A DNA stretch of 64,000 nucleotides, taken from assembly GCA_951804945.1 (NCBI GenBank), contig OX638156.1, positions 40,238,001 to 40,302,000 of the forward strand, written 5' to 3'. Origin of the DNA: Podarcis cretensis (taxonomy: Eukaryota). Each line of letters starts with the position of its first letter. Position 1 is the stretch's first letter. Positions 5,911-61,458 of the stretch are shown piece by piece. Under the pieces are notes generated by a model that saw only the letters and a list, made by a program, of their open reading frames with translations, did not search any database and was not told the DNA's origin. The translations under genes and the position numbers were made by a program.

Positions 5911-6003
5911 ATTAATAATAATGATTTTATTATTTATATCCTACCCATCTGGCTGGGTTTTCCCAGCAACTCTGGGTGGCTTACAGCATATATTAAAACA
6001 TTG
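5911..6003 (-). mobile_element. Short 5'-truncated L2 3' tail
   Basis: cccatctggctggg..cccagc.actctggg.ggct matches the 3' end of the L2 at 22680-22735; AAT-rich tail. Confidence 0.75.
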
Positions 6004-22628: not shown

Positions 22629-22629
22629 A

Positions 22630-22677
<48 letters not shown>

Positions 22678-24885
22678 TTATTATTTGTACTCCGCCCATC
22701 TGGCTGGGTCTCCCCAGCCACTCTGGGCGGCTTCCATAAAAACCAAAAATACACTAAAATATCACAGATTAAAAACTTCCCTGAACAGGGCTGCCTTAAG
22801 ATGTCTTCTGAATGTCAGGTAGTTATTTATTGCTTTGACATCTGCTGGAAGGGCGTTCCACAGGGCAGGCGCCACTACCGAGAAGGCCCTCTGCCTGGTT
22901 CCCTGTAGCTTTGCTTCTCGCAATGAAGGAACCGCCAGAAGGCCCTCGGCGCTGGACCTCAGCGTCCGGGCAGAATGATGGGGGTGGAGACGCTCCTTCA
23001 AGTATACTGGGCTTTAAAGGTCAACACCAGCACTTTGAATTGTGCTCGGAAACATACTGGGAGCCAATGTAGGTCTTTCAAGACCGGTGTTATGTGGTCT
23101 CGGCGGCCGCCCCCAGGCACCAGTCTAGCTGCCGCATTCTGGATTAGTTGTAGTTTCCGAGTCACCTTCAAAGGTAGCCCCACATAGAGCGCATTGCAGT
23201 AGTCCAAGCGGGAGATAACTAGAGCATGCACCACTCTGGCGAGACAGTCCGCAGGCAGGTAGGGTCTCAGCCTGCGTACCAGGTGGAGTTGGTAGACAGC
23301 TGCCCTGGATACAGAATTGAACTGCGCCTCCATGGACAGCTGTGAGTCCAAAATGACTCCCAGGCTGCGCACCTGGTCCTTCAGGGGCACAGTTACCCTA
23401 TTCAGGACCAGGGAGTCCTCCACACCTGCCCGCCCCCTGTCCCCCAAAAACAGTACTTCTGTCTTGTCAGGATTCAACCTCAATCCATTAGCCGCCATCC
23501 ATCCTCCAACCACCTCCAGGCACTCACACAGGACCTTCACCGCCTTCACTGGTTCTGATTTGAAAGAGAGGTAGAGCTGGGTATCATCTGCATATTGATG
23601 GACACCCAGTCCAAACCCCCTGATGATCTCTCCCAGCGGCTTCATATAGATGTTAAAAAGCATGGGGGAGAGGACGGAACCCTGAGGCACCCCACAAGCG
23701 AGGGCCCAGGGGTCTGAACACTCATCCCCCACCACCACTTTCTGAACACGTCCCAGGAGGAAGGAGCGAAACCACTGTATAACAGTGCCCCCAGCTCCCA
23801 GCCCCTCTAGACGGTCCAGAAGGATGTTATGGTCGATTGTCTCAAAGGCCGCTGAGAGATCCAGCAGAACTAGGAAACAACTCTCACCTTTGTCCCTAGC
23901 TCGCCGGAGATCATCAACCAGCGCGACCAAGGCAGTTTCAGTCCCATGATGAGGCCTGAATCCCGATTGGAAGGGATCCAAATGGTCCGCATCCTCCAGG
24001 CGTGCCTGGAGTTGTTCAGCAACCACGCGCTCAATCACCTTGCCCGAGAAAGGAAGATTTGAGACTGGGCGATAGTTGGCCATACTGGCCGGGTCTAAAG
24101 ATGGTTTTTTAAGAAGCGGTTTAATGACCGCCTCTTTCAGCGGATCTGGGAATGTTCCCTCACAGAGGGAAGCATTCACCACCCCACAGAGCCCATCGCC
24201 CAGCCCTTCCCGGCTTGCTTTTATTAGCCAGGATGGGCAAGGATCCAGGAGACAGGTGGTTGGTTTCACGCGTCCAAGCAGCCTGTCCACATCCTCGGGG
24301 GTAACGGATTGAAATTGATTCCATGCAACTTGACCAGACAGAGCTCTAGCACTCTCCCGCCCCGGCACTGCTCCCACAGTGGTGTCTAGCTCCTTCCGAA
24401 TATGAGTGATTTTATCTGCAAAAAACTTTGCAAAATCGTTGCAGGAGATCTTGGGGTCTTTACAAGACCCCGGTGGTAAAGGTGGTTCCGTTAAATTACG
24501 AACCACCTGAAAGAGTCTCCTGCTACTATTTTCTGCAGATGCAATAGAGGCGGTGAAGAAAGTCTTCTTCGCCGTCGCTATCGCCACTTGGTAGGCTCGA
24601 CGTTGAGCTCTAACCTGTGTCCGGTCAGATTCGGAGTGAGTTTTTTGCCACCGACGCTCTAGCCGCCTCAGCGATTGTTTCATCGCCCTCAGCTCCGAAG
24701 AAAACCACGGAGCTGTCCGGGCTCCATGCAATCGGAGAGGGCGCTTCGGAGCCAGACAGTCGATAGCCCTGGTTAACTCCGCATTCCAGCGGGCCACCAG
24801 GGAATCAGCTGAAAGGCCATCAACATGGGATAAAGCATCCCCTACCACTCTCTGGAAACCATTTGGATCCATTAAGTGGCGGGGG
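22629..24885 (-). mobile_element. 5'-truncated young L2-clade LINE: RT part of ORF2, 3' UTR and (ATT)n tail
   Basis: 624-aa ORF 22998-24872 with NYRPVSNLPF, QSGFR, LDLSAAF, GVPQGSVLSP, YADD and QNAAARL motifs; C-terminus continues in another frame (22762-23001); microsatellite tail 22629-22677. Confidence 0.93.
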
Positions 24886-25493
24886 AACTAAAACACTGCT
24901 AAATACTTGCTAAGGATTTGTCACCAGTAAAGAACAAATAAAGGTGTGCTTTAATGATACCATATCTCTAATCAGCACCACCTGCAAAGTCCTGATCAAA
25001 GTAGAATAAATCTTACATCATTTGCAATGTAAGCATGGAGCCAAACAAAGCTGTTCAGAATACACATGCTATGTCATCCTCAGTTGACCTTTGAGAAAAT
25101 AGTGACTTGCCAGTTCATCAGGGACCTAGTTACAGTGATGACAATCTAGTACCAAATGAACCTCTCTCCGGTTATAATCATCTCTAGTGAAAATCATGTT
25201 TGCTGATTATCCAATAGCCACACATACAGTATACAGAGCTTGCCTGTTAATACTGTTGATCAGTTTTTCTAAGTTTAACCTACATGTTTTACAACCAAAT
25301 GCAGCAGAACCCACCACTTAGCATTTCCAGCTATACACACATGGCAAAATATACACATGCTCAAATATAACCAAACATATGCAGTTTCTTTCACAGAAGT
25401 GACATCCGTACAGGAAATCTATCATACATGAAACAGCCCTTAAGTTTCTGGCATTCAGTTTTTCCTCAAAAGGTCAGATTGTGATCAACATAC

Positions 25494-32892: not shown

Positions 32893-34810
32893 CTAGTTGC
32901 AAGAAAAACAAAAGAGCTGAAGCGAGGTACCATAGCATTTGTAACTACATAGAATCACAGAACTGTAGAATTGGAAGGGACCCTGAGGATCATCTAGTCC
33001 AACCCCCTGCAACACAGGAATATGCAGCTGTTCCTTATGCGGATTGACCTTCAACCTTGGTGTTTATCAGCACCATGTTCTAACTGAGTGTTTCTACCAC
33101 TTTCAGCTGCAACTCTTAAGGAGCAGGAGCCACACAGCTTTCTGCCAGGGTCCATGCTAGTAGCAAAAAGGAGAAAATAAGGGAAAGTCACAGAGTGTCC
33201 AGGTCACATTAAACTACAGTTTAAACAAGTTTTGGTTTAACATGACTGAACAGTGTGGTGGTAAACACTGCTCAAATCACTGCACAGCCTTAGTTAAAAC
33301 CTTTTAACTCCTGTTCTGAACCAACCACAGTTATTGGACCATTTTTATAGACAGTCCCACATACAATGCAGTGCAATAGTCTAAATGGGAAGTCAACAGA
33401 GGATGGGCAATTGTGGCCAAGGTATCACCACTCAGGCAAGGTCAAAGCTGGTGTATCCACCAAAGCTGAGAATAGGTAATTTGAGTTGTAAGATCATTTG
33501 AGCCTCCAGTGCTGGATCAATAAGCACCCCCAGCTGGACACCTGATCCTTTAGGGAGAGTAGAACACCATCTAGAACAGGCTGAATACTATTCACCTGGA
33601 TAGATAAACCAACCAAATAGGGCACACCAACTTTTCATACCAAGTGGACAGCAATGGTAATTTGACAGAGCCCATGGGCTGCACACTGCCTTGTTGCACA
33701 CATAGGAGCATGGCCAAAATTGATGCTGCCCCCCCACCCTGCCAGCCTTCACACTGCCTTCGTAAAGCTGCCTAAGTGAGGCGCCAGGCTTTGGAAAGGA
33801 GGCATGAAGCTCTGTAAGGGTCCTACAGTTCTCCCACCTCCTTCCTCCCAAAGCCTTGTTAGCTCTTTCCCAGCTTTGGGAAGGAGGTGGGAGGACTCTT
33901 AAGACATGGTTACAGCCCTCAGTCTTCCTTCCCAAAGCCCAGCTCCTCACTTAACCAGCTTTGGGAAGGCAGTGTGAAGAATGGGGTGGGTCTGTGTCAA
34001 ATGTTGCCGAGGGCTGCCAAAAAAAGCCTCAAGGGCTGCATGTGGCCCTTAGGTCATGCAATGGACCACCCTGAATCAATCAATACCTCTAATCTTCTGT
34101 GACTATGGGCAAGAGGGTTTCCACTTGCACAGCAGGGCTTTCCTTGCGCTCCTCCTCCCACTATCCCCAAAATTGGCTGCAAGGGGAGGTCAGAAGAATC
34201 CCCGAAACAGTGCACAGGAAGAAGGAGGAGGCTCATTCCATCTGGCAAGCTGCATTGCTTGTACTAATAGGGACATTCATCATAGTGTGATGTTCAATTC
34301 CACCCTGAACCTCTGTTTTTAAGAGTTCATCCAGTTCATTGCCATGCCCAAGCAGCGTGCACAGCCTCACTTGCATGTGATGAGCAACAAATATAAAGCT
34401 GAGTATCATCTTCATTCCGGTGACACCTTCAACCAAATCTTCAGATGATCTTTCTCAATGGTTTCATCAAGATGTTAAACAGTGTGGGCAGATGAATAGA
34501 ACTCTGCAGAACAAGCATCAAGCAGTACCTCCCAAACTTAAACCAGACAGCTGAACTGAAAGGACATTATTATTAATGGCACTGAACACTACTGAGAGGT
34601 CCAGGAGAATCAACAAGGTTCCATTTCCCATCTGCCAGCAAAGATCAGCCTACAGGATGACCAGAGTAATTTTTGGCTCCAAACCAGGTTAGAAGCCTAA
34701 CAGAAATGGATCTGGGTTAGGAACATTTGGCCTTCCTGATGTTGTTGAATCACAACTCCTATTATACTGTGGAACCATAAGAGGGACAGACAATTCAAAA
34801 CTTATCTGAT

Positions 34811-35163
34811 AAGGTAAAGGTAAAGGGACCCCTGACCATTAGGTCCAGTCGCGGCAGACTCTGGGGTTGCAGCGCTCATCTCACTTTATTGGCCGAGGGA
34901 GCCAGCATACAGCTTCTGGGTAATGTGGCCAGCATGACTAAGCCGCTTCTGGCAAACCAGAGCAGCGTACGGAAATGCCGTTTACCTTCCTGCCAGAGCG
35001 GTACCTATTTATCTACTTGCACTTTGACGTGCTTTTGAACTGCTAGGTTAGCAGGTGCAGGGACCAAATGGGAGCTCACCCCGTTGCAGGGATTCGAACC
35101 GCCAACCTTCTGATTGGCAAGTCCTAGGCTCTGTGGTTTAATCCACAGCGCCACCCGCGTCCC
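34811..35163 (-). mobile_element. Full-length Sauria SINE
   Basis: A/B boxes, (ACCTTT)n tail, probable TSD atctgataa (34804 and 35168). Confidence 0.9.
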
Positions 35164-35415
35164 TACAATCTGATAAAGCACCTCTCAAATAATTTTTCCC
35201 TGCCTAAAGCTTCGTAAAGGACACTGGAAGCTTATTACTGAGCAGCGGAAGAAGAGAAAGCAGCTTTTTGCCAGTGCTGTCTTTTGATAATGTGTGTGCA
35301 ATGAATCACATATTGGCTGTGTTTGCACATAAACTGTGGCTAATGTTATTTAACAGACCATGACTCACCTCGCAGACAAGCAAACAAGTCACAGCTTGTT
35401 TACTTCATATCAGAG

Positions 35416-35557
35416 CAGGTGCAGGGAACTGTGGCGCTCCAGATGTTGCTGAACTACAACTCCCATCATCCCTGACCCTGGCCACTAGCCATGCTTACTG
35501 GGACTGACGGGAGTTGTAGTTCAGCAGCATCTGGAGGGTCAGAGATTTCCGACCCCG
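35416..35557. mobile_element. Palindromic hAT-type MITE
   Basis: gaactacaactccc...gggagttgtagttc internal inverted repeat with CAGG-type termini. Confidence 0.8.
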
Positions 35558-35913
35558 TTCTAGATAATCAGATTCATCTAAGAATAATTAGAATGAGCAG
35601 GCCCCTACTCTCTTGACAACCTTGTGAGGAAGGATTTATTTACAATTTTCTATTTTAAAAAATACTTACAGCCCCACACATCATGAAAAATGGACATGGA
35701 AATTTTATACAAAATATCAGTTGAAAACAATATCTAGTTCATTAAAATCCTAAGCTAAATTCAGAAAACTAAACAAAATCACAAGAGCAACAAAACAGGA
35801 GTGCAGCAATACAGCAGAAGGGAAAGCATCCACTTGCCTGAAAGGCTTGGTAAAGAAGCATGTCTTAACTTGACACTGAAAATGTTACAATGACACACCC
35901 CAGAAGAGAAATA

Positions 35914-35955
<42 letters not shown>

Positions 35956-36010
35956 TTATTACTTATACCCCACCCATCTTGCCGGGCTTCCCCAGCCACT
36001 CTGGGCGGCA
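35914..36010 (-). mobile_element. L2 3' tail with (AAT)n microsatellite
   Basis: Matches the L2 3' end at 22630-22730. Confidence 0.8.
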
Positions 36011-37769
36011 GCCCTCTCATTTGTCACCAGTATTCAGTTGTTTGGGGCTTTTTATATTAACATCTTAGACTGGGCTCAGCAGCAAATTGGCAACCAGCAC
36101 AAAATCTTTCAGGACCAGCAGTAACACCCAGCAGTAACCTAGCTAGCTGCTATATTATGCACCAGTTGCAGCTTCCAAACCATCTTCAAGGGGAACCCCA
36201 TATAGTGCACTGCAATAAACTGATAAGGAAACATTAGCCGCTGGCCTATAGTTAATATCATCTGGATCCAGGCTGGGCCGACTTGTAGCTTCTTTTAAAG
36301 AAGATGCAACGGCTCATTTTGTCAATGAAGAAAGAGCAAGCGTGAGCTGAAGCACAGGGGGTTTCCTTATATCTTCTGCTGTGAATTCATTCAGCTTCTC
36401 TGCATTCACCTTTTCTTCCTTTAGACAGCTTTTGACTCCTTTACTGTTCAAAGGTCCAGCTGTCTCCCTAGATGGTCTCTAACTACTGAAGTATTTTGTA
36501 GTTGTTGATTTTTGTTTTTAGCAGCTGTCATCCTCAAATTCTTTTTTTGCATTGCTTATTGTCTGCTTGCAATATTAAAGTCTTATTTCCCCCTCCTACG
36601 TGCATATTTTATAGTTTTGTTTTTCATGTTTTAATTTTGGTCTATTATAATTGTTCTCCATATTATATACACTATAAAATGAAAATTTAAAACTTTACAA
36701 AAGAATCAGTTATTTAAAGACCTTAAACACAAAAGTTAAAAGGCATTTGAAAGTTGGATGTAAACAAGGATCAAAGTAGCATACTTCTAAGTAGTAATGA
36801 ATATAAGACACTTCAAGTGAAGAAGACCAGAACACACCGTTAACCAAAAACCCTCTACCAGCTTCAAAAGTTTGCAGGAAAACTAGGGCAGCAACAACGT
36901 GGGCATATGGTGCCACAAAGATGTTGCCCTGAAGTAATTGTTTTTCAGGTCACTATACTTCATGCTACACTTCTTCCACATTCACTTTTTCACATCTCAT
37001 GCAGGTTGAGAATTAAATAACATTACTAGCCACACTGGGCAGGGAACTGTAAACCTGAAGGTTCACTTCACTGTTTTCACCATCATTTCCACCACCAGTA
37101 CCAGCCTCAATTCTTTTCCCCCTTTTTTTAAAATCTAACCATTCAAAAAAGGAATGCAGACCTGGAGGCAACAAAAAGAAAGAGGCGACTACTTTTGTAA
37201 CTATGAAAAATACAAGCTAGAATGAACAATTTTCATTTAATAAGGAAAACAGACAGTAATAACATTTGCAATAAATTCACCCTAGAATGAACTAAGTATT
37301 GCCAATTTAATTTTGCATTAAATTACTACAAGACATTGCAAGAAGCTCAGGACAGGCTGATTTTAAATACTCAAAAGAACTCTGTTATAAACATGGAAAT
37401 GAGCAATAACTCTACAGGACCACTGAGTAATTAAAGCCAATGTCGTAAATCAATTCAGGTACAAACAAAAAAAGATGAAATAACAGGATAAATAACATAT
37501 AAAACTACTTAACAGTTTAATAAACTTGACAATTGTCAACTCCCAGCAAGCAAAATATAGTAAGATCTTAGTGGCCTGTGGTGTTTTGCACTACAAATCA
37601 CATCAACCAGTTAACATGGTCAGTGGTCAGAGCTGTAATCCACAACATCTGGAGATTACCAGGTTGGGGAAGGTTGTTCTAGCAACTAAACCAATCAAGC
37701 AGTGAGAAGAGGGAATATAAACAGTACAAACTAAGTTGTGGATACCCTTTTCATTTCTTTTTTTTTAAT

Positions 37770-38567: not shown

Positions 38568-38705
38568 CAGCGGTTCTCAACCTGTGGGTCTCCAGATGTT
38601 GTTGGACTACAACTCCCATCATCCCTAAGCTCTGGCCTTGCTAGCTAGGAGTGATGGGAGTTGTAGTTCAACAACATTTGGGGATGCACAGGTTGAGAAA
38701 GGCTG
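38568..38705. mobile_element. hAT MITE with perfect 8-bp TSD
   Basis: TIR cagcggttctcaacctgtg / cacaggttgagaaaggctg, flanked on both sides by CTCTAGAG. Confidence 0.9.
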
Positions 38706-46867: not shown

Positions 46868-46954
46868 TCAGATGTAGCTGGCTTTGGAGAGGAAGCATTC
46901 AAACATCTTCTGAGCTTGTCCAGGCTTATACTGTGGAACCATGTGACCAGCACC
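46868..46954 (-). CDS. Cathepsin A-like serine carboxypeptidase, coding exon 11 (catalytic His, stop)
   Basis: GAGHMVPQYKPGQAQKMFECFLSKASYI*. Confidence 0.92.
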   Translation of the reverse strand, partial: GAGHMVPQYKPGQAQKMFECFLSKASYI

Positions 46955-47220
46955 CTATATATGAGAGGGAAGATGCTTTAGAAAAGAGCTGAGAAAGCAC
47001 ATCTGAAATAATTTCCCCCTGCCTAAAACATTGTGAAGGATACTGGAAGCTTATATTGAGCAGAGCAAGAAGAGGCAACATCTGTGTAAAGGAGAGAATG
47101 CAACTTTTCGCCAGTGCTGTCTTGATAATGTGTGTGCAATTAATCACATATTGGCTGTGTTTTCACATAAACTGGGGTTAATGTTATTTAACAAACAAGC
47201 CATGTATTGCTTATTTAGAG

Positions 47221-47350
47221 CAGGTGTGGGAAACCGTGGCCCTCCAGCTGTTGCTGAACTACAACTCCCATCATCATTAGCCATGCTTGCTGGGACTGAT
47301 GGGAGTGGTGGTTCAGCAACAGCTGGCAAACCAAAGGTTCCCCACACCTG
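47221..47350. mobile_element. Palindromic hAT-type MITE
   Basis: TIR caggtgtggg / cccacacctg with internal inverted repeat. Confidence 0.85.
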
Positions 47351-47701
47351 CTTAGATCTTATTTTGTTTTCTAGCTACTCTTGCGTCATGCCTTCCCAGC
47401 TTGAGGAGCATCTGGGGTAACAGGTAGGGAAAACAACCATAGTTAAGCAGGGTTGTTAGGTTCATAAGTAATGTTAAACCATAGTTAGAATAAGCCATGA
47501 TTTTTAAGCCAATACCGAGCCATGGCTTCACATTGTCATTTGCTGATAGAAAATAAACAGGCTAGTTTGCTGATATGTTTTCACATGTTCAGGCAAACCA
47601 CAGTTACGGTAAACAAACCATAGTTTAATGTTACATGAGAACCAGGCCTTTGTTACAGGGCCCAGGATTACACCTAAGCCCTTTTAATAATGGGTCTCTC
47701 C

Positions 47702-47754
47702 AGCTTGAGAAGCCATTGCCTCCAACGTGTTAGCTTGAGAAGCCATTGCCTCCA
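47702..47754. repeat. Direct repeat of 23 bp (period 30)
   Basis: agcttgagaagccattgcctcca occurs twice, followed by degenerate tcttgaaaacc units. Confidence 0.85.
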
Positions 47755-48074
47755 TCTTGAAAACCATCTTGAAAACCTCTATCTTGAGAGCCATGTCATG
47801 CTTAAAAAATAACTGAGCCCATATAATGTGTTTTCTAAACAAGCTTTTGGCTCTGCTCCTGCTTTAAAGTATTGGCCGTTAGTGTTGCTCTTCCTGTTTT
47901 TGTGTTATCCTGCTGTTTATAAACTTGTCATTTTGTCTTTTAATTATTAGCTTGTTGCTGATTTTTACTTAAAATCTGCTTTTGAGTAACACTGTTGTAC
48001 AGGGGAGAAGCAGGGCATAAATCTTTTAAATAATGAAAAGTATAATGCCCACTGGCTCCAATTAAATCACTGAC

Positions 48075-48164
48075 CTTTACGGTGAGAAATGTGATCTTCT
48101 CATACTCCTTGAAAAATCCTGCAATCTGATCATTGAAATACCAGGGCTGGTAATCATTTAGCAC
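48075..48164 (-). CDS. Cathepsin A-like coding exon 10
   Basis: VLNDYQPWYFNDQIAGFFKEYEKITFLTVK. Confidence 0.92.
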
Positions 48165-48504
48165 CTGTGGAATTAATGAAAAAGAAGGTCACAAACTGGA
48201 AACAGACAAGAGACCCAATATTAGTGTACATACTAGTCTATCGCAGATGCTCCAAAACTGGCTCTTAGTAGACTTATTACTCCAGATCATGTTTTGCTAA
48301 CTTTCTCTTCATCTCTGCCCATCCATTCTAACTTCTTTTCTAAATGACAGCTTGGTTATGTCTTTAACAACAACTGCACATCTGTCGGTATTGGAAAGCT
48401 GGGTCCTAAAAGGCAGGATCAGCTGTGTCTTCCCACATAAATTAAGGAGCAATAGGTTTTCAATACAGCACTTAAGATATCCATAGTTCAAAGGAGTTAC
48501 TTAC

Positions 48505-48667
48505 AGTCTGATTTAAAGACTCAACAAACTTTTCAGCCCCCAAGAAGTTGCAGGCCATGTCCACGTCTCCATTATAAACCAATGCTCGTAGGTCCTGAGC
48601 CAGCAGATACTTGTAGAAGGGAGTCATGTCTCTGTACACCCTTTGGTAATGAGAGCTAACCTGTGTA
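48505..48667 (-). CDS. Cathepsin A-like coding exon 9 (catalytic Asp)
   Basis: TQVSSHYQRVYRDMTPFYKYLLAQDLRALVYNGDVDMACNFLGAEKFVESLNQT. Confidence 0.93.
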
Positions 48668-50100
48668 CTGCATGGAGAAGAGAAACGCATGGGGGGTGGG
48701 GTTCAAGGAGCTTGGGCCCCTCATCCCTTCTCCCCTTTGTTTCACCGGTAAGATCAACCAAGGGTGCCCTTTTGATGCAAAATCCAAGCTGCCAAGAACA
48801 TGCAAGTTGGGGTTCTCATTGACTGCCAACAGCCACAGAATTCCTTTCCTGCCCCTGCAGGCCTATCAGAATATGAGCATGAGCCAAGGCCATCCACCAC
48901 CAAGTGGTTTCAAGAGGAAATGATGCTGAATATACAAACCCATGTACTCTATACCTTGCCCCAGAGGAAGAATAATAAATAAGCTGGGGAGAAATAAATG
49001 TTCCCAACCTTAGCGGTCCACAGCTGAGACAAATATCCTCTATAATTTAATCCAGTGATGTCTGGAAGGTAGTTTGTTTTACAACTGTTTTCAGAATTCT
49101 CATACAATTGAGATCCAACTTATTAGTTCCAGCCAAAACCTCTTAATGCCCAGTAGTAGCAGTTAGTTGTTGTATTCATTGTCTCTTTTAAGGAAAACCA
49201 TCTAAGCCACAATAAGACATTTTAATGGGAAATGGTGGTAAGCATCAGTACTATGCTAGGTGTGAACAAGCGTGAGGATTAGCCATGTGGAAAACCTTAC
49301 CTATGGAGAAGTTATTTTTTCAAACAAATTTCCTGAACATGTAATATCACTTCTCAGTGAGACTGAAATACCCAAATAAATAATGATAAGGTTTTGCACA
49401 CCCCTCCAAATGCCCAACAAAAATACCACAGAAGACTATTGATGACTGCATGTCAGTAAGATGAACAAGGAGAAGAAAGGTCCATTTGTCACCTGAAAAA
49501 GTTCTATCGGATGACTCACTATGCATGCAACCCCAACAGAGAAGCAGGGGAAAGATTTATTCAATATCATAAAGGACTTATGCCACATCTTACAAGATGA
49601 CTGTAACATGATTGTTGTTCTCCCAGGACTATCGGTATTGGAGATCTGTCAGCTCACCCGAGGGGTCTTGAAGAAGCAAGGTAGTCAGTACATCAATAAA
49701 ATCTTCAGTTCCCTTCACTTGATTTCATATTGTACATCCATGCAAAAATTATCTGGGAAAGGAGACTACCCTTGCAGATAATTCTGACATCACTTCCCCA
49801 GCTTCCAGGCTTAGGGCAAGAAAGTATGGGCAGAGTGAAACAGGTGCTTCACGTTAGAGGGTTGTCAAAACAAAGATGGGGAAGCTGTTTTTGTTGCAGT
49901 CTGCATTTTCATTTGATCTCAGTCCTAGTACATACCCATATGTTATCAAGCTCTGGCAACCTGCAGTGCATCAGTACTGTACCAGCGGAGAAACACCACT
50001 TTTCCACAAAGCCTTGCCAGGCCACTGCCCTTCATTACCATTCCATTACCAAACAACTTTTTCATGCTTCTGAAGAGCAGAAACATTTGATGGGAGTCAC

Positions 50101-50228
50101 CTGCAGAGCTCCCAGTCTGGGAGAGTGCTGGGGATGTGGAGAGCCTGCCGGACTTCATCCTGGTTCAGCCACACATACATAGCAGTGGCATTTATACAAT
50201 GTGGCACTCCTGGGATGGAGCCAATTTT
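50101..50228 (-). CDS. Cathepsin A-like coding exon 8
   Basis: KIGSIPGVPHCINATAMYVWLNQDEVRQALHIPSTLPDWELC. Confidence 0.9.
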
Positions 50229-50531
50229 CTGAAAGTGAAAGCAAAGAGAAGGCAAGATGAGGTTGAATTCTTCTGGGAAAAGCTGGTGCAAGATACCAGC
50301 ACCTTGCTTTGCCAGACCTAAGCCTGATTCAGCAAGTGGCCCATAGTTCATTTATAAATGGATGAATCATGCCTTCCCAGCATAAACTTTTGGGAATAAA
50401 TTTCCATACTGAATATTAATGCTTAAGAAAATTGGTTTTTTTTTTGGGGGGGGGTTAAGTTTGCCAAATTCACAGAATCACTAGAGCCACCTGAGTGATG
50501 TAAATGTGATGAAGATAGCCTATCAACTCAC

Positions 50532-50681
50532 TCGCACTGGAACATCAAACTGGTAGTGGTGGAAGAGGCTCGACAGATCGGCTTCATAACGCTCCTGGTA
50601 GTGTGCTCCTCCCCAGCAAGATGCGTAGAGGTTGTACACATTAAGGCCAATTCCATAAAGAATTCCATAGGCTTGTGATAT
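50532..50681 (-). CDS. Cathepsin A-like coding exon 7
   Basis: ISQAYGILYGIGLNVYNLYASCWGGAHYQERYEADLSSLFHHYQFDVPVR (GLNxYNLY motif). Confidence 0.88.
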
Positions 50682-51490
50682 CTTGAGGATGGGAACAGGG
50701 AAGAAGAGGATAGAAGAGTTAGCTACGCTCTGAGTTTATGTGCAGAAAGAGGAGAAAGGAAACAGATGTGTGGAATTCAGTAATATTTATAGCTTTTGAG
50801 GGTCATCAGTTTATTTTTATGGGTTTATTATCAAATTTATATCTTGCCCTTCTGCCCAAAGGAGCCCAGGGCAGCTAACAACAAAGCAATAAAACATATT
50901 CCAAAATCTTAAAAACAATTCCAGTACAGATGCAGACTGGGATAAAGATAACCAGTGAAAAGACAAGAGATTGCACCTGTGTAATATTCAAGGGGAGGGG
51001 ATTCCAAAGGGTAGGTGCCCCAACACTAAGGACCAGATTACTACATTGTGCAAAATAGACCTCATTATAAGACGGTATCTGCAGGCAGCCTTCACCTACA
51101 GAGCACTGTGATCAACTGAATATATAAGGGGTGGGATTATCAGGAATCCTAGTTCCAAAGTGTATAGGGATTTATGCACCAAAACCAGCACATTGAACTT
51201 AGCCTAGTAACTACGTAATTAGCACCCATTGCAATTATTTCAATGGTGTGGTAACACGTTGGCAACATCCTAATGCTGTTCAGAGAATTTGGTGTAGTAG
51301 GTGCTATGGGCACAAAATAGGGCAGAGACATTTCCAGAAGACTTTACTAAACCCATAATCTACCAGTTCAGGCCAAAACACATTATTGCATAACAATTAG
51401 AACATTCTAGTTTGTGGCCAGGTGCAAATGGAGTTTGCAAAGTCCACACTACATGAGTTAGTATCAAGGATTTTCAGTCCAGGCACTCAC

Positions 51491-51575
51491 TGCTGTGATA
51501 CAATCACTGTTCATGTTGCTGGAGAAGTTGCAAGTTCCTTCATCACAGCAGTTTTCGTTCAAGGAGGCCCACAAG
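51491..51575 (-). CDS. Cathepsin A-like coding exon 6
   Basis: 85 nt, LWASLNENCCDEGTCNFSSNMNSDCITA. Confidence 0.92.
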
Positions 51576-52204
51576 CTATAAGGCAGGAAAGAAGGCGGTA
51601 AAGTGTCAGGTAGAGGGAAGCTTATTCATTTTTATTCAATCATTACATTTGTATACCACCCTTCACTCAAAATCACAGGGTGGTTCACAACTTAGAAGCA
51701 CAAAGTGTGTGTGAGCACACACACACACAGGCTCCCCTGCCCAACAAAGGAGAACAGATAGTTCAAACAACATTGACAGATATCTGTCCTGTGTTCCCTG
51801 GAGATGTCAACAACCTCCCTAACTATTCTGCCTACAGTTTGTGCAAGTTAAGCTTTTCTTTCTGTCCTCTCTTCAGTGGAGATAATTGCTAATTTTATTC
51901 ACTGACAGGAAACAACGGCTTCCCCTTATTTAGCACACCTTTGACTCACTTGCCATCCAACCACCTTGCTTGCCAGTTTCTTGTTTCTGATGTACTCAGT
52001 GATGCATGATAAGGGCAAGACCCTTTACTACAGTCTCCACTCTCCTTTTTTGCTTCTCATTTGATCTGGCAAATGGAGAAGGCGGGGACAATTCTTTTAG
52101 AGGCCAGGTGTGAACTTGGAGCTACCAGTTGTTGACTTGTATGGTGGGAGATTTACCTGTGGCCACTTGCTGACCCAACTCCCCTTGTCCTCTTCTGTAC
52201 TCAC

Positions 52205-52296
52205 TCATCTCCAAACACTCCATGGTAGTAGGCAAATTCCATCAGTGTCTCGTCATTGAGGAAATAGCTCAGCATGCCATTGCCAACCCCAAATCC
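52205..52296 (-). CDS. Cathepsin A-like coding exon 5
   Basis: 92 nt, GFGVGNGMLSYFLNDETLMEFAYYHGVFGD. Confidence 0.93.
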
Positions 52297-52756
52297 CTGA
52301 GGAATCAGATAACAAAAGATCATGCCAAGAAAGGAGTTGTATGAAATTGGATGATGGGATAGTTAGTTGAAAGGCTATAATTAGAACAAGGCCTGATGCC
52401 AGGTTTGAAGATAGCAGGCAGAGGAACTGTAGTGTCTAGTGCCTCTTGAGATACAGCACAACTGGATGTGGGGCAATGGCACCGGACATTCAGAGGCAGC
52501 TACCAAGCAAGGCCTTCAAAGTGAATCCACCTCCCCAATTCCAGGCATGTCCTTTCCATGTGGCCTGCTTTGGATGTGAGAGGAGTGAGGCCTTCAGGGC
52601 TTGTTGTCATCAGGGCAAAATCTGCATTAGTGGCTGCTGCTTGTGGGTTGGCAGTGCTCACTCATTGCCCCTAAATGTGCCATTTGGCCTACATGGAAGA
52701 TCTTAGCTCTCCTGGTTTCCCAGTGACTCTGCTTCCTGTACCGCGATTGTGTTTAC

Positions 52757-52915
52757 CTTCAGGTTAATGCCTGCTGATCCTTCCGCAATCTTGGCAGTGA
52801 GAGTGGGGACATAGATTCCACCATAACTTTCCCCAAAAACATAAAATTCGTTGTTTGCAAAGTCTGGGAATTTAGCAAAGAAACTCTGGAGAGCCTGGTA
52901 GTTGTCCTCAGCTAC
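52757..52915 (-). CDS. Cathepsin A-like coding exon 4 (catalytic Ser, GESYGG)
   Basis: VAEDNYQALQSFFAKFPDFANNEFYVFGESYGGIYVPTLTAKIAEGSAGINLK. Confidence 0.94.
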
Positions 52916-53420
52916 CTAAAGTAGGGAGAAATTTTGACCCACCTCTTAGCTTTGGTGCAAATCATAGGACAGAGTTTGATGTGCATATCATGTGCGGCTG
53001 CATTAAGAAACACACTCCTGGCATTATCTTCCCCCACCCCACCCCTCTGCTCCTCATCCGTCAGGAGTATATGACAGAAATCTTGATTTGTCTCAATGAA
53101 CATCCAAATAAAGACTTCTCCTACCTGTAAGGCAAATGGAATCTGTCCCAACAATACTTACAAACTTTGTGAGCTGATCCCTCACAGCCCAGACAGCTGT
53201 GTAGGAAGTCTATATTGCCTCTGGATAGAACCATGCCATACATTTAAGGCACAGCCAATGCACATTTACAACACATGGCTCCCCCAAAGAATGCTGATAA
53301 TTGTAGTTTCTTCCTCAAAGAGCTGCAGTTCCCAGTGCCCTTAGCAATCTATGATTCCCAGGATTCTTTAGGGGAAGTCGTATGATTTAAATGTGCACTG
53401 GCTGTGTTTTAAAACCGTAA

Positions 53421-53717
53421 CTGAGGTCCAGCTCAGAGGGCCTTCTGGCAGCTCCCTCATTTTGAAAAAGTGAAGTTACAGGGAAATAGGCAGAGGGCCT
53501 TTTTGGTAGTGGCGCCCACCCAGTGGAACACTCTCCCATCCGATGTCAAAGATATAAACAATTATATGACTTTCTGTAGACATCTGAAGGCAGCCCTGTA
53601 TTGGGAAGCTTTTAATGTCTGATGTATCATGTGTTCTTTTATACTCTGTTGGAAGCTGCCCAGAGTGACTGGGGCAACCCAGTCAGTTGGGTGGAGTACA
53701 AATTAATTATGATGATG
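53421..53717 (+). mobile_element. L2 3' fragment
   Basis: Diverged reverse-complement match to 22680-22960. Confidence 0.8.
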
Positions 53718-53892
53718 TATGGTGTGGTTCTGCCCTATATTACTGCCACAGGACTAACAACCTTCCCCCATCAGCTGCTACCATCACCATTCCATCTATT
53801 GCCCCACCCACCACTGGCATGTATGAATCACCCCCATTTTGTTTACTAGAGAATGCGGTCCGTAGGCCAGGAACAAACAGCAAATTACCTAC

Positions 53893-54024
53893 CTGGCTGT
53901 CATTGATAGGGCTGTCCTCTGTGGCATAGGAATAGCCAACTCCAGCCGGAGATTCCATGTAAAGCACGTTGGCTACCTTGTTCCAGCTGTTGGGGTTCAG
54001 GTAGAGTGTTGCATCGTCATTCAG
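53893..54024 (-). CDS. Cathepsin A-like coding exon 3
   Basis: [44 protein letters not shown]. Confidence 0.93.
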
Positions 54025-54558
54025 CTACACAAAACCACAAGGCAGGCAAAGCGGGTTACTTTGGGGATGTGAGGTATTTGCAGCATGCTGTTCACTAAAT
54101 CTTCCATATCAATTGCCTCCAAGCACAGTCTCAGATTCCCAGTCCTTGAGAAATCAGGCATCTGTGAGTTGGTCTGGGCATTATTGCAGGATTGTCATAC
54201 ATCCAAGATTCTCCCGGACACATACAGAATACTGCAGTTGGCAGCAGTGTCCAGGTGGAAATCAGGAAAATGTCCAAGAAAATCCCCAAAAGCTCAACAA
54301 CTTTGGGCAAAATTAAAACAACATAGAGCCTCTTTGCACCTGGCTCTGATGATCTCATAGTAAGTAAATAATGTTGCCTCTGCACCTGTATATAGCACCT
54401 TTCCCTCCTGACAGAATGATCCCAGGCAGCCTCCACAACTTTGAGATGAGATCAAGAGCTTCAGGCCCAGTTGAATCCCAACTACCTGATCCACAACCCC
54501 TTTCTTGTCCCATGTTTCTCTTCTTTCCCATCAGCATACAGAGCGGCCACAGACTCAC

Positions 54559-54670
54559 ATGGAAAGGTCCATTCTCAGCCAGGAGGCCTTCCATGGAACT
54601 ACAGCCTGGTCCCCCATTTAGCCAGAGCACCACGGGGTCAGTTGCTGGGTTGCCCTGAGACTCCACAAAC
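54559..54670 (-). CDS. Cathepsin A-like coding exon 2
   Basis: 112 nt, [37 protein letters not shown] (S10 [10 protein letters not shown] motif). Confidence 0.95.
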
Positions 54671-55265
54671 CTGTCAGGATAGAAAGGGAGAGAGCAAACA
54701 CCCTGATGGATATGTTTAGAGGAGGCCCAAAGAATGGAGACCCGAGGAAGATACCTGATGCAGTAGCAGACTTTGGGCTCTCAAATTTCAGCGGCGCCCT
54801 GTGTGACGCTAATATTTGGTGCAACCTCGCCTCTTATGCTTTGTTCTACAGCATTGTTTTGGTGAACCCTGCAGTGTGGCACCCAGTGTGACTGCTCTGG
54901 TTGTGCCACCCTAAAACTGCCTTTGCCTGATGTTGCAGCAGTCCTATAGCTAAGCATGCCTGTGCTGAGTGAGGGGCTGCATTGGGAACATGGAAGGAAG
55001 AACAGGGGCATCATCATTGAGGGTGTAAATAAATGTGGTGTTAGCTGGTGGGACTAGTGGGGCAGAAGGGAGAGAGACTAATAGTAGGCAGAGAGAGGTG
55101 GAACCACAGCCAGCAACAGGGAGAGCCAGAAAATTTTGTCCCAAGTGAGTTCTACAAGATCAACCCTGAGACTGAGGAAGAGGAAGGTGGCAAGCAGGGC
55201 TACTCCCTGGGCCCGTTGTAAATCATAAGGCAGGCAGTTGTGACATAGCTAAGGTTGGTGGGGCT

Positions 55266-55267
<2 letters not shown>

Positions 55268-55309
<42 letters not shown>

Positions 55310-55425
55310 TTATTATTTATACCCCGCCCATCTGGCTGGGCCTCCCCAGCCACTCTGGGCGGCTTCCATAGAAAGCAAAAATACGGTAAAATATCACACG
55401 TTAAAAACTTCCCTGAACAGGGCTG
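55268..55425 (-). mobile_element. Young L2 3' tail with (AAT)n
   Basis: Close match to 22630-22793; gggctgt at both junctions. Confidence 0.85.
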
Positions 55426-55730
55426 TGCCGCATTTACGCTAGTGAACCAGCCCCCACTGAATCAACCTTTTCCTCCATGCAGCTACCTTATGGGCAGGAA
55501 TCCAGGAGAGAGGCAGGCAAGGAACTACAACATCCAACATGGCAGCCTGCTCCTACTGGACCTGCCTCCCTCCTGCCCCCACCCCCGCCCCTCTGCAGGG
55601 CCATGGATCACCACCAGAAATGAAACAGCTTCTGTTTTCATAATGGTCTTATTGTTATTGCACTTTGACTTTATTTGTAAGCTGCCTTGGGGGGAATTTG
55701 TGCCTGTAAAGGGAAGACACAAATTATTAT

Positions 55731-55772
<42 letters not shown>
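55731..55772. repeat. (AATC)n tetranucleotide microsatellite
   Basis: About 10 units seen directly. Confidence 0.95.
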
Positions 55773-55916
55773 GCTAATGTTACAAGCAACCAACTTATTC
55801 TTAGGCTGCCCCACACAGCTAGTTCCAGGGCAGTAGAGAAGCATAAACGTTTCTGTAAGCTGCAGCTCATCCAGAACATCTTGGCAAAGGCAATTGCAAC
55901 AAACGATTAGCAAGAG

Positions 55917-56100
55917 CATAAGGACATCAGAAGAGCCTGCTGGATCACACCCAAGGGGGCCCATCTAGTCCAGCACCCTGCTCTCATAGGGGCCAACCCA
56001 AGGGAAACCTGCAGGCAAGACCCAAACACAAGAGTGCTCTGCCATCCTGCAATTTCCACCAACTGACATTCAGAAGTGTTGCTGCTGCTGCCAATGGTGG
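55917..56100 (-). mobile_element. CR1-type LINE 3' end fragment
   Basis: agaagagcctgctggatca...gcccatctagtccagca motif, similar to 8995-9230. Confidence 0.6.
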
Positions 56101-56291
56101 AAGTCCATGAAGCAGCTGTTGTCTGGATGTCAGCAATGTGTCTAGCCAGGATTAGCTTTTTAGCTCTTAATTCATGAGCAATTGGAAGCATGCATAGGTC
56201 AGCCAGCACATACCCAAAAGCAACAAACAGTTCAAATGAAGAGGAGACATGAATATTAACTCAATCTCTGGCTCTCTGGCTCTCTGCTTAC

Positions 56292-56464
56292 CAGTAATGG
56301 AAGTATTGGCCAGATCCTGCCTGGAGATAGCCGGACCATTGCTGGAAGGTTGGCATCTCAGACAGTCCTGGCAGGGAAGTGATGAGATCCGGAGAAGCAT
56401 CTGTCCCTGAGCAGAGGCCAAAGGAGACACTGAAGACGGCGCACAACCTGAACAAGAAGTGCAT
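56292..56464 (-). CDS. Cathepsin A-like coding exon 1 (signal peptide)
   Basis: accATG Kozak; MHFLFRLCAVFSVSFGLCSG then DLITSLPGL...WSGYL...HYW; donor TG|gtaag. Confidence 0.88.
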
Positions 56465-57299
56465 GGTGCTGTTTTGGGACAGGCTGCCATAGAGTGGTGG
56501 TGTTGCAGGGCACCTTATATCATGCTCGGCCTGTGTACTCTGATAACAAGCCAACAGCATAATCTTGTTTCTTGATTACTAGAGATAATGGGAAGGCGGG
56601 CAGCGTGGCTCAATGTACCAGCAAAACACAAGCCAGGCTTCTATGGAAGGAAATGTCACTTTGAAATGTCACCTTCACCTTATTTAGCCTAACAAGACTT
56701 CAGATTAGATTGACCAATTTGGCTAAGTCTCTGGCTTCAAGGTAAATTATGATCAATCTTTTCCAAGAATTGGTACTGATACGGTTAAGTGACACTTCCT
56801 TAATGGAATCTCTCAAAATCTAAGAAGCAGAAATATCTAGGCATAGGCCCGGACTTAGGTTTGATGAGGCCCTAAGCTACTGAAGATAATGGGGCCCTTT
56901 ATATGTGATATTTTAGGGAGCAGGCTAGCAGGCGGGGCCTATTACTTACATCATAGGAGCCTACACAACACAAAACACTCTTGCTGTATGTAGATTTTAT
57001 TTTTTTAATCCTTGGATTAGCTCTTTTTGAAACCTAGGTCTCCCAGACATTTGGAAAAAAATGGATAACCAACTAAGGATAACAAACTATTTCATTTGGA
57101 CAGGTAAGAAAAGCTTAGATGTAGAAATAATACAGTACTGTAAGCTGTTGCTCAGTGACAAAAAAACAGCACAGTGATGTATGAGTCCCCCAATCTGAAA
57201 CTTTTCTTTGATGAAGTGTATCAACGACGACTGCTGATTCACTTACAGAAAGACTTGAATCTTTACTGGATCAATAGAGATGGACTGAATTATAGAATA

Positions 57300-59187: not shown

Positions 59188-61458
59188 TACATGGCACTAA
59201 ACCAAAGTCGTATACATAATAATGTTAATTTATTTAGGCCGTGGCAGCTCAATGGTATCCCCAATCTAGACACTCACCAGGAACAACTTAAAATCTAGGA
59301 TGCTGGAAGAGAAAAATCCCCAAGTCGGCTTACATCTACACCACTGTAGTTGACACTGGCTGAGGATTTGCAGTCCAAAACATCTGGAGGGCACCTGGTT
59401 GCGGAGCCTGAGAGGCCTGCTCCAGCTCTCGCATTTTAGTAGCATTTCTGCTGGTGACTTTGACTGGTTTTATTTTTCTTTGTACTGACTTTCTAAACAG
59501 TGGTTCTTGTGATCATGACCCACAGAGTTCTGTGCAGAAAGGCGGAACATAAAAACAGATATGAAATTAAAGGGCCTGCAGCAAAGGATCTGGTTATGTA
59601 TAGGAATATGTTATGCAAACATTAATCAAATGCAATTTGTTTCATAAAGATTAGATAAACAGAAACTGTAAGTCAATGTTACCCTGCATGGATGGCCCAC
59701 ACCAGTTTCCCTAGTGCTGCCACTAGAAACTGTCTTCTCTCTCTCCACTTTCCAGATCTTGGAGAGGGGCAAAACTATTTTGCTCCAACTATGCTGCATC
59801 ACTCAATGAGCAAAAGAGAAGCTGGGAAGGGTTGCTCAATAGCTGGCAGTTTGACAAAGAGATGGTTCCTGCAAGGAAGAAGGTGAAGGTGGGTAAGGGA
59901 GTTTTGGGCTTCTCTGTCCCTCTGCAGGAGAACCAAGCTATGAAGCCACCTAGAACTGGATCTGCATTAATGGGCAGGAATCAAAGCACAAGCAACCCAG
60001 AAGTTGGAATTTTCCTTTTTAATTCTTATTTCCATGGTGACATTGTCCCATTAAAACCCAAACTTCACCACCACCGCCCACCCTGGCACACAAGATTTGA
60101 AATGGGGGCTGGGAGGGTGTGTTGCACCTCCCCCCCAAAAAAAAATCTTCAAAATTAGTGTATAATTGACATTGAGAGAGAGCCTGGACTTTAGCCCCAT
60201 CTGCCAGGACATAGAGACCTTCTAAAAATCTGCTTTGTAAACATCAGAACATGCTACAAAATGCCACATTGGAACAGATACGAATGGGATCCTGCAACAG
60301 AAGGTGTGGCCCTGAGATGTCGCTGTACTAACAGAGTACATCATCATCCCTGACACTTGGGCCTGGCTGGTTGCACAGGCCGATGAGAGCATCTGGGGGG
60401 CGGCTACAGGTTCCCCCACACAAGGCAAACCTGTGATACAGCCCCAGAATCTGGCATCAACTTAATCAAATGAAAACATAAAAGGAAATAGGTCTCTGAC
60501 AACTGAGAACCAAATGAATACTGTGGGTTAAAACATGATTGGATGGAGCAGAGACACCGCCCAGCAAAGGAATAGAGTTTGTTCATGCGGCATCTGAATC
60601 TGGTGAATCTCACCAGAAAGGAGGGGAAGGAAGTAGTCAGGTGACAGGAAGGAAGGACCTGTGTGAATTTGATGCCAAGGAAATGCCCTCAAATGTAGTC
60701 AAATATTCCCTTTTCCAATGTATGTGTATCTAAAACTCAAGGATCTTTTCCCTCAGTTTTCATTTTCAAATATAAAAAGTAAAAGGATAGCAACAATATA
60801 AAAACAAATAACTTCCTCAATAAGCACCAAGTCCACAGGCCAGCCTTTACCAACAGGGTGCCTACCAAATGTTTCAGAGGGAAACTCCCATCTGTCCCAA
60901 CATCATACGGCCGTACTAGCTGGGGCTGATGGGAGTTGTCATCCAAACCAGTCACCAGGCTGGAGAAGGCTGCCTTAAAGTAATTAAGCTGTAGTTCACA
61001 CTGTGCAGTCATGTCATTATCAACCACATGACCTTTGCTACATCACTGGTCATGATACAAAGATGAGCCCCCTGGGCACATAAATATAGAGCAGAAGTTG
61101 TGTAGTGAATGGCCTGGGTCCTCTTACACACGTGTGTGGAAGGCAAGGGCAAAAGGAGAGTCCTTTTTGAGAGCGATGTCCCAAAAGGCAAAGAGGAATT
61201 CAGTTTGTGTTCAGAGTGTGAAGCTGCATGCACAGCAAGTGGCCCTGTGGGGACTTGACTGATCTATCAAGAAGAAAATGGGAAAGAAAATGGAAATCAA
61301 AGTCTCGGAAGAGGCTCCCAACAAACAAAACAGGAGTAGCACAATCACCGGGGGAGAGTGGAGGGAACGGTTGCCTCCTGCCGACACGAGACATTCCTAA
61401 AAATTGGAATTCAAGAATCCAGAGGAGGAAAGGCACCCTCCGAGGGCAGTTGTAGGGA

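Follow-up and report, generated by a model that had tools for sequence, protein, structure and literature searches.

An intron of a CNOT1-like gene carries a fragment of the neighboring serine carboxypeptidase gene, copied from 12.2 kb away on the same contig and enclosed between half of one MITE and a full-length member of the same family. The cassette is genuine and old; it is present as a single copy, is fixed in the relatives sampled and is not mobile. It is likely that it originated as a single-copy capture in a palindromic MITE (MITE A), made by break repair primed on a sister MITE (MITE B) 12 kb off and not by a transposase. The original prediction had offered two routes to such a structure, a Pack-like transduplication and a local capture by template-switch repair; the latter is supported, with two copies 12 kb apart, and nothing speaks for the former, given the count of two copies and the damage to both termini.

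Genomic setting

The window, that is the whole 64,000-nucleotide stretch under analysis, belongs to an assembly of 1.51 Gb (1,507,627,055 bases, 51 contigs). The CNOT1-like gene on its minus strand matches Pfam CNOT1_1st under the cut-off (E 0.013), and its exon translations agree with CNOT1; a search by motif in the readable sequence did not find its first coding exon. The cassette lies in an intron of this gene, upstream of an exon at ~32.8–32.9 kb. The serine carboxypeptidase gene, also on the minus strand (~46.9–56.6 kb), is recognized by Pfam Peptidase_S10, holds all three catalytic motifs (GESY, NGDVD and AGHMV), and has another exon whose best PDB matches are the lysosomal protective protein, or cathepsin A (E 6e-14). 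A domain search also places an amino-acid transporter gene on the minus strand of the window. The labels used here for the organism (lizard), the SINE (Sauria), the LINE (L2) and the MITE (hAT) are provisional and independent of any repeat library. The features of the recipient site and of the donor are as follows.

34351..34713, minus strand: segment of the old LINE (L2-like, provisional label) on the 3' side of the breakpoint, DPF..GF.PG onward, from blastn and translation
34710..34713, plus strand: remnant of the left target-site duplication (TSD), ATCT, which keeps 4 of the 8 bases; 4 more, together with the first 3 bases of the MITE (terminal CAG), are lost
34714..34765, plus strand: left arm of the recipient MITE A, model positions 4–55, 21% from the family consensus
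34762..34778, minus strand: captured piece of the last exon, 17 bp, encoding MVPQY, identical to 46926–46942
34779..34812, minus strand: captured intron, first piece, following a 20-bp deletion
34813..35167, plus strand: SINE inserted later (Sauria-type, provisional label), its 9-bp TSD perfect (34804–34812 and 35168–35176)
35168..35415, minus strand: captured intron, second piece, homologous to about 46987–47220
35416..35557, plus strand: full-length MITE, donor-like to about 35527, with a right tip more distant from the donor
35558..35565, plus strand: target-site copy on the right, agreeing with the inferred ATCTAGAT at 7 of 8 bases
35558..35630, minus strand: segment of the old LINE on the 5' side of the breakpoint, FLDESDYL, from translation and genomic copies
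46868..46954, minus strand: last coding exon of the donor gene, GAGHMVPQY..., 28 codons and stop, Peptidase_S10 positions 397–419 (E 2.7e-5)
46926..47220, plus strand: donor tract that was copied, unique, 29 bp of exon and 266 bp of intron
47221..47350, plus strand: donor MITE B, in the same orientation, a perfect-ended hairpin (-47.6 kcal/mol, z -10.6)

The captured tract

When 34300–36000 was compared with the window by blastn, the single non-repeat match joined 35170–35534 to 46989–47326 (E 1e-63), and excision of the SINE at its TSD leaves a cassette that is colinear with 46926–47350. This bears out the earlier alignment of 35170–35415 with the last intron of the gene. Over the whole unique tract (290 bases in the copy, 295 in the donor) there are 37 mismatches in 253 aligned sites, a divergence of 14.6% (identity 85.4%, K2P 0.164); the copy has gaps of 20 and 22 bases, the donor of 27 and 6. 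The 20-bp deletion in the copy sits between two AT repeats and removes the splice acceptor together with the G-A-G-H codons, so that the copy lacks acceptor and His codon as had been stated.

The piece preceding the SINE (34762–34813) has an alignment score to the donor of 34; 630 other 101-bp tiles of the window have a mean of 15.8, a standard deviation of 2.7 and a maximum of 28. From a sharp start at 34762/46926, the homology extends to the right end of the MITE. At the left junction (34762..34765), the last four bases of the half MITE are the first four of the captured tract; they fit the donor at 46926–46929 exactly and the consensus of the MITE arm end at 3 of 4, a microhomology of 2–4 bp. 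The result is 290 bp of unique DNA flanked on one side by model positions 4–55 and on the other by a complete element of that 138-bp family. The SINE, which has 9.7–18.9% mismatch to 29 other matches, must be later than the capture, as previously suggested, because its insertion doubled bases belonging to the copy, and the donor has no such SINE.

The split LINE and the target site

The cassette cuts the LINE exactly between TAT-CTA and GAT-CCA (YL and DP). By blastn, the segment 34351..34713 is 63–74% identical both to 8 genomic copies and to the RT-bearing LINE of 22998–24887. Contiguity was assessed in 8 other genomic copies picked by their match to the left flank, in 6 of which the alignment reaches the breakpoint. 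For L004, L007 and L011 the right flank's best local alignment begins within 1–3 bases of the left flank's end, while L005 and L008 have similar but weaker sequence past the breakpoint that the aligner placed elsewhere; in L009 and L010 the alignment ends before the breakpoint. The right-flank scores are low (26.5–42.5) and within the range of chance, and it is the position of the alignments that serves as evidence. On these alignments the LINE is contiguous across the cassette, which is placed, as the original prediction had it, precisely between the FLDESDYL and DPF segments. In the remaining copy (L006:1633, on C2 near 9335116), the same-family LINE stops at the same GGATCT position and unrelated sequence follows; insertions or breaks may recur here.

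The intact copies L004 and L008 read ATCTAGAA at the target site, and the right flank of the cassette (35558–35565) reads TTCTAGAT. Seen in full, L004 reads AAATGGATCT then AGAAAATCAG, and the window reads AAATGGATCT, the cassette and TTCTAGATAATCAG. A single TSD may enclose the whole unit, its right 8-mer kept at 7 of 8 bases and its left half lost at 4 of 8. The target preference of the family was taken from the 10 of 29 MITE copies with a TSD match of at least 6 of 8 bases, where T4 occurs in 19 of 20 sites, A5 in 17 and A7 in 12, giving NNNTANAN. The 8-base site in the LINE agrees with this preference at T4, A5 and A7. The site had been assigned as a hAT target; it is indeed typical of the family, though the preference is looser than the proposed NTCTAGAN.

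The MITE family and the two ends of the cassette

The MITE profile (138 bases, built from 29 genomic copies) has 7 matches within the window and 52 in 400 kb, the latter covering 40 stretches chosen by round coordinates, 6 of which lie beside the window, with several subfamilies pooled, for a density of ~130 matches per Mb. Three MITEs that were folded form hairpins with arms of 54 bases (z -10.3 to -12.8). An 8-bp TSD is kept at 6–8 of 8 bases in 10 of the 29 copies (mean 4.7 of 8), and from this TSD length and the CAG termini we take the palindromic MITE to be a hAT element. Elsewhere in the window, a MITE of a different subfamily (38568–38705; other tips, same core) has a near-perfect 8-bp TSD, and further degraded matches lie at 37587–37656, 60305–60417 and 60860–60944.

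A left-half MITE had been reported at 34712–34761. It is present, at 34714–34765, the earlier start having counted two bases of the target site. As the half MITE consists of model positions 4–55, its end is the end of the palindromic arm, with the junction at model positions 52–55. The full MITE has the left flank of the donor and the LINE target as its right flank, and so has no TSD of its own. Both outer termini are damaged, the left lacking model positions 1–3 and the right being one base short.

The likeness of the full MITE to the one at 47221 had been noticed and was understated, since over about its first 105–110 bases the element is a copy of that MITE. The cores of the two differ at 12 of 99 sites, and none of 406 pairs among the 29 other copies is as close (pair mean 21.8%). 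The closest of the 29 to the donor MITE is at 13.3%, and one of them, all of which were picked for likeness to the copy, is slightly nearer the copy (11.4%) than the donor is. Further, a 1-bp deletion near the left tip is common to the full MITE and the donor MITE and occurs in 1 of the 29 other copies. Because of the same left junction, this shared deletion and the low number of core mismatches, the donor MITE counts as part of the captured tract, and copying was probably primed by it. Descent of the core from MITE B is well supported by these comparisons.

Conversely, the right tip of the full MITE differs from the donor at 11 of 30 sites (Fisher p 0.005 against the core; p = 0.07 when a 5-base run of differences is treated as one event), as would be expected if the tip belongs to MITE A, and it is likely that this tip is the recipient's own right end. 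Tips are more variable across the family (mean 28.7%), and 14.5% of pairs are at least as far apart as copy and donor. The copy and the donor MITE share 3 derived substitutions, as many as 11 of 36 others share with the donor and not above background; shared substitutions were dropped as proof of descent from MITE B as not significant. A subfamily link between the half MITE and the right tip through position 5 (G in both, T in the donor) was also set aside, as left and right agree in merely 19 of 36 copies, and by eye the half MITE pairs with the right tip no better than with the copy's own left tip. A switch point inside the MITE is moderately supported by the sequence, and its exact position is not well supported because tips vary family-wide and the count of shared substitutions is at background.

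Another MITE of the family (L076:331-520, C13:30000331-30000520) is interrupted close to the end of its left arm by ~45–60 bases of other sequence, and a copy of the arm-end motif stands on either side. This may be a further and smaller fill-in at that fragile position.

Origin of the cassette

In the sequence of events that we favor, two MITEs of the same orientation would first have inserted, MITE A in the LINE and MITE B in the final intron of the carboxypeptidase gene. Later, MITE A would have broken at the end of its left hairpin arm, such a break on the loop side being the likely trigger. The right broken end may then have invaded MITE B through right-arm homology, and synthesis would have run leftwards through MITE B and 295 bp past it into the unique flank, after which the new strand could have been joined to the left broken end at the 2–4 bp of microhomology. 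Decay, the SINE insertion and fixation would have followed, all before the sampled species split. Both the break at the loop side of the hairpin and the direction of copying are inferred, and the microhomology, at 2–4 bp, can be chance. Repair synthesis that starts from homology at one end and closes on microhomology at the other is the simplest single event to yield half of MITE A, the flank of MITE B, the core of MITE B and a junction on the side of MITE A.

The same product could have been reached with no double-strand break, by a replication fork that stalled in the hairpin-forming MITE A, jumped by microhomology to 46926, copied the flank together with MITE B and returned to MITE A via right-arm homology. 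This product is identical to that of break repair, the strong hairpin and the microhomology at the left junction suit it, and stalling or template switching of forks has been put forward for some Pack-TIRs, the terminal-inverted-repeat elements holding captured DNA described by Tan et al. (PMC8277862). However, a template hairpin would be expected to stall the polymerase at the base of its stem, and the junction lies at the arm end beside the loop; PMC8277862 links this route to multicopy, distal cases. A stalled fork is the unlikely, if best surviving, alternative to repair of a break.

A transposase might have moved the tract into the LINE by composite or end-bypass transposition, using a left end from one MITE and the right end from MITE B. 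In favor of this, the cassette has a left MITE end on one side and a right one on the other, and its target site is typical of the family. The donor, however, is intact, with no MITE or TIR at 46926. Such transposition would need a second MITE in the coding exon, the loss of its right half and restoration of the donor, and the right tip is less like the donor than the core is. We regard this route as quite improbable.

A small segmental duplication, or a relic of an old tandem carboxypeptidase gene beside which a half MITE lies by chance, has in its favor that MITEs are dense (the 52 matches in 400 kb) and that the donor tract carries its own MITE, which is the ground given in PMC8277862 for leaving such cases out. 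Against it, homology is confined between the right end of a MITE and the half MITE, beyond which LINE sequence lies on either side; a plain duplication would need to terminate just where a MITE ends and to arrive next to a half MITE, all within one target site. By blastn, the rest of the gene (45.5–57.5 kb) is not echoed in 28–44 kb save for repeats. Peptidase_S10 matches were found at four loci (C8, which is the gene of the window, C6, C2 and C12), with no extra exon in the intron that holds the cassette. The contiguity of the LINE largely refutes this explanation, and we give it very little credence beside repair of a broken MITE A from MITE B.

Copy number and presence in relatives

A genome-wide search with 35170–35410 returned two matches, itself and the donor (E 3e-44), and the reciprocal search also two. 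The search skips common words and its counts are lower bounds, with two candidates raised each way. Two matches had been named beforehand as the sign of a local capture, and the captured DNA is not the high-copy repeat that the prediction had allowed for. The 17-mer at 34762–34778, whose identity to the MVPQY-coding bases of the last exon was confirmed by an exact scan, occurs at 2 places in 1,507,627,055 bases (0 for a reversed-pattern control). No third copy of the left junction was found genome-wide, a weak test in that the short query missed even the donor. That both outer ends are MITE ends would fit a member of a mobile Pack-MITE family; however, neither the intron, the 17-mer nor the left junction turned up a third time, the source lies 12 kb off, and both ends are damaged (3 bases on the left, one on the right). 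Three DNA searches and the exact-pattern scan of the genome having given no third copy, a mobile family was rejected and is most improbable, unless diverged copies slipped past the search filter.

The C6 paralog was compared as an alternative source gene. Its 10 kb, a stretch without the last exon, have no DNA likeness to the captured tract past two 10-mers (E 0.53), and on that comparison it was ruled out as the source.

The junctions were checked in 8 runs, under eight organism labels, of 24 runs listed. Contigs bridge the LINE, half MITE, exon piece and SINE in 7 of 8 runs (none listed for X10), the SINE, intron and MITE in all 8, and the MITE tip and LINE in 7 (none listed for X14). The whole cassette is spanned by none of the contigs listed, as repeats break them. 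The most distant runs, X12 and X5, are about 3% different (20 letters in about 635); X15, with 0–1 differences, may come from the assembly's own species or sample and may not be independent. All 8 runs hold the cassette, and neither a pre-capture allele (intact MITE A, empty LINE) nor a pre-SINE allele is among the joints listed. An assembly artefact, for which the want of a listed contig across the whole cassette might speak, is next to impossible given the 14.6% divergence and five large indels between copy and donor and the unique junctions bridged in independent runs (7/8, 8/8, 7/8).

In relative order, the LINE (26–37% from other copies) precedes the MITE insertions (pairs at 21.8%), which precede the capture (12–15%); the SINE came after the capture and then the sampled splits (3% or less). 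It is from the copy-donor divergence of 12–15%, below the pairwise divergence of the family, that the capture is placed after MITE insertion.

Relation to known captures

The statement in the original prediction that such capture is seldom shown in vertebrates is outdated. Tan et al. 2021 (PMC8277862) count 370 Pack-TIRs, spread over 55 of the 100 animal genomes surveyed; 208 are hAT and 4 multicopy, and the rate is about 2 per 10,000 elements. As reported there, 56.9% lie within 15 kb of the parent, microhomology is found in 67.6% (median 2 bp), breakpoints are skewed towards the interior of the TE, and the uncaptured TE is present in outgroups for 91 of 97 primate cases. The sole lizard genome surveyed gave 0 cases, from 77 annotated DNA TEs. 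The cassette shares with the single-copy, gap-filling Pack-TIRs of PMC8277862, as characterized there, more than 100 bp of non-TE DNA between two ends of one TIR family (its 290 bp lie within the 100–5000 bp of the definition), a single copy, a hAT-type element, a parent on the same chromosome within 15 kb, a breakpoint inside the element, possible short microhomology and capture after insertion. Its 12.2-kb distance, single copy, internal breakpoint and, if not due to chance, microhomology match that profile.

There are also differences from those Pack-TIRs. The parent here abuts a MITE of the same family, which was copied too, leaving half a MITE, filler and a whole MITE; and there is one microhomology junction, the other consisting of about 100 bp of MITE-to-MITE homology. 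The authors omit TE-linked parents, with filters of no TE within 100 bp of the parent and 90% identity (PMC8277862). This locus fails both, as its parent ends in MITE B and its identity is 85.4%. It works like a Pack-TIR, yet would fall outside the set of that survey, whose filter is operational. Pack-MULEs and plant Pack-TYPE elements, as treated in PMC8277862, likewise hold gene fragments between TIR ends, and the plant elements are often multicopy, with distant or interchromosomal DNA unlinked to the parent. The present capture is, in contrast, single and local, with damaged ends.

One-sided invasion or long-tract gene conversion completed by end joining is known, as is abortive gap repair at Ac/Ds and P elements. 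Gap filling at P elements is summarized in PMC8277862. In such repair, as is proposed for MITE A, an end copies a homologous repeat, enters the unique flank and is joined at microhomology, the difference being that those breaks were induced in experimental systems and this one is a fixed germ-line fossil. Events of this type are known; what differs modestly here is the priming, in that the donor itself abuts a MITE of the same family. No squamate case and no parent-linked form was found in the literature searched, a weak sign of absence since few subscription papers were covered.

As one locus, the cassette is a clean fossil of repeat-primed repair in which the order of events, the donor and both junctions can be read. 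We can suggest only tentatively that palindromic MITEs act as break sites and as mutual repair templates, leading to recurrent captures of half a MITE, a neighbor's flank and the neighbor's MITE that are filtered out as segmental duplications, with this locus as the first described squamate example. The configuration matters only if it is common. Should that be so, counts of TIR duplications in animals would miss a homology-primed, transposase-free route, and that route would scale with MITE density.

Function and neighboring elements

No function is evident for the cassette. Its captured coding content is 17 bases without their acceptor in an intron of the CNOT1-like gene, and it is proposed to be an inert intronic relic. 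It had been described as not exonisable as it stands, which is correct for the native acceptor; the SINE, though, supplies in antisense a pyrimidine tract and AG at 34806 (minus strand), 27 bases before the captured ATG. This acceptor-like site is in frame with MVPQY and opens 38 codons to about 34690, a frame that runs from the captured MVPQY through the half MITE into the DPF frame of the LINE and then a stop. The first donor-like site (7/9 consensus) is 435 bases further along. Acceptor-like sites number 20 per 10 kb in this intron, with 34806 no better than background, and the ATG base at 34778 differs in one relative. With no near donor, common acceptor-like sites and a variable 34778, exonisation through 34806 is unsupported.

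The C6 locus (C6:912924-920000, L082) has GPGCS, GESY and NGDVDMAC exons similar to those of the gene in the window (46868–56575, minus strand), and judged by these exons the cathepsin-A-like gene adjoining CNOT1 is a second cathepsin-A-type gene. An intron of the CNOT1-like gene holds a young LINE fragment (22998–24887, minus strand) with an unbroken 629-codon frame that includes a reverse transcriptase domain (RVT_1, E 1e-36). A young repeat with an (AAT)n tail is present in 5 copies in the window (35909–36009, 22629–22793, 55267–55425, 53421–53703 and 5913–5985), at 79–95% identity.
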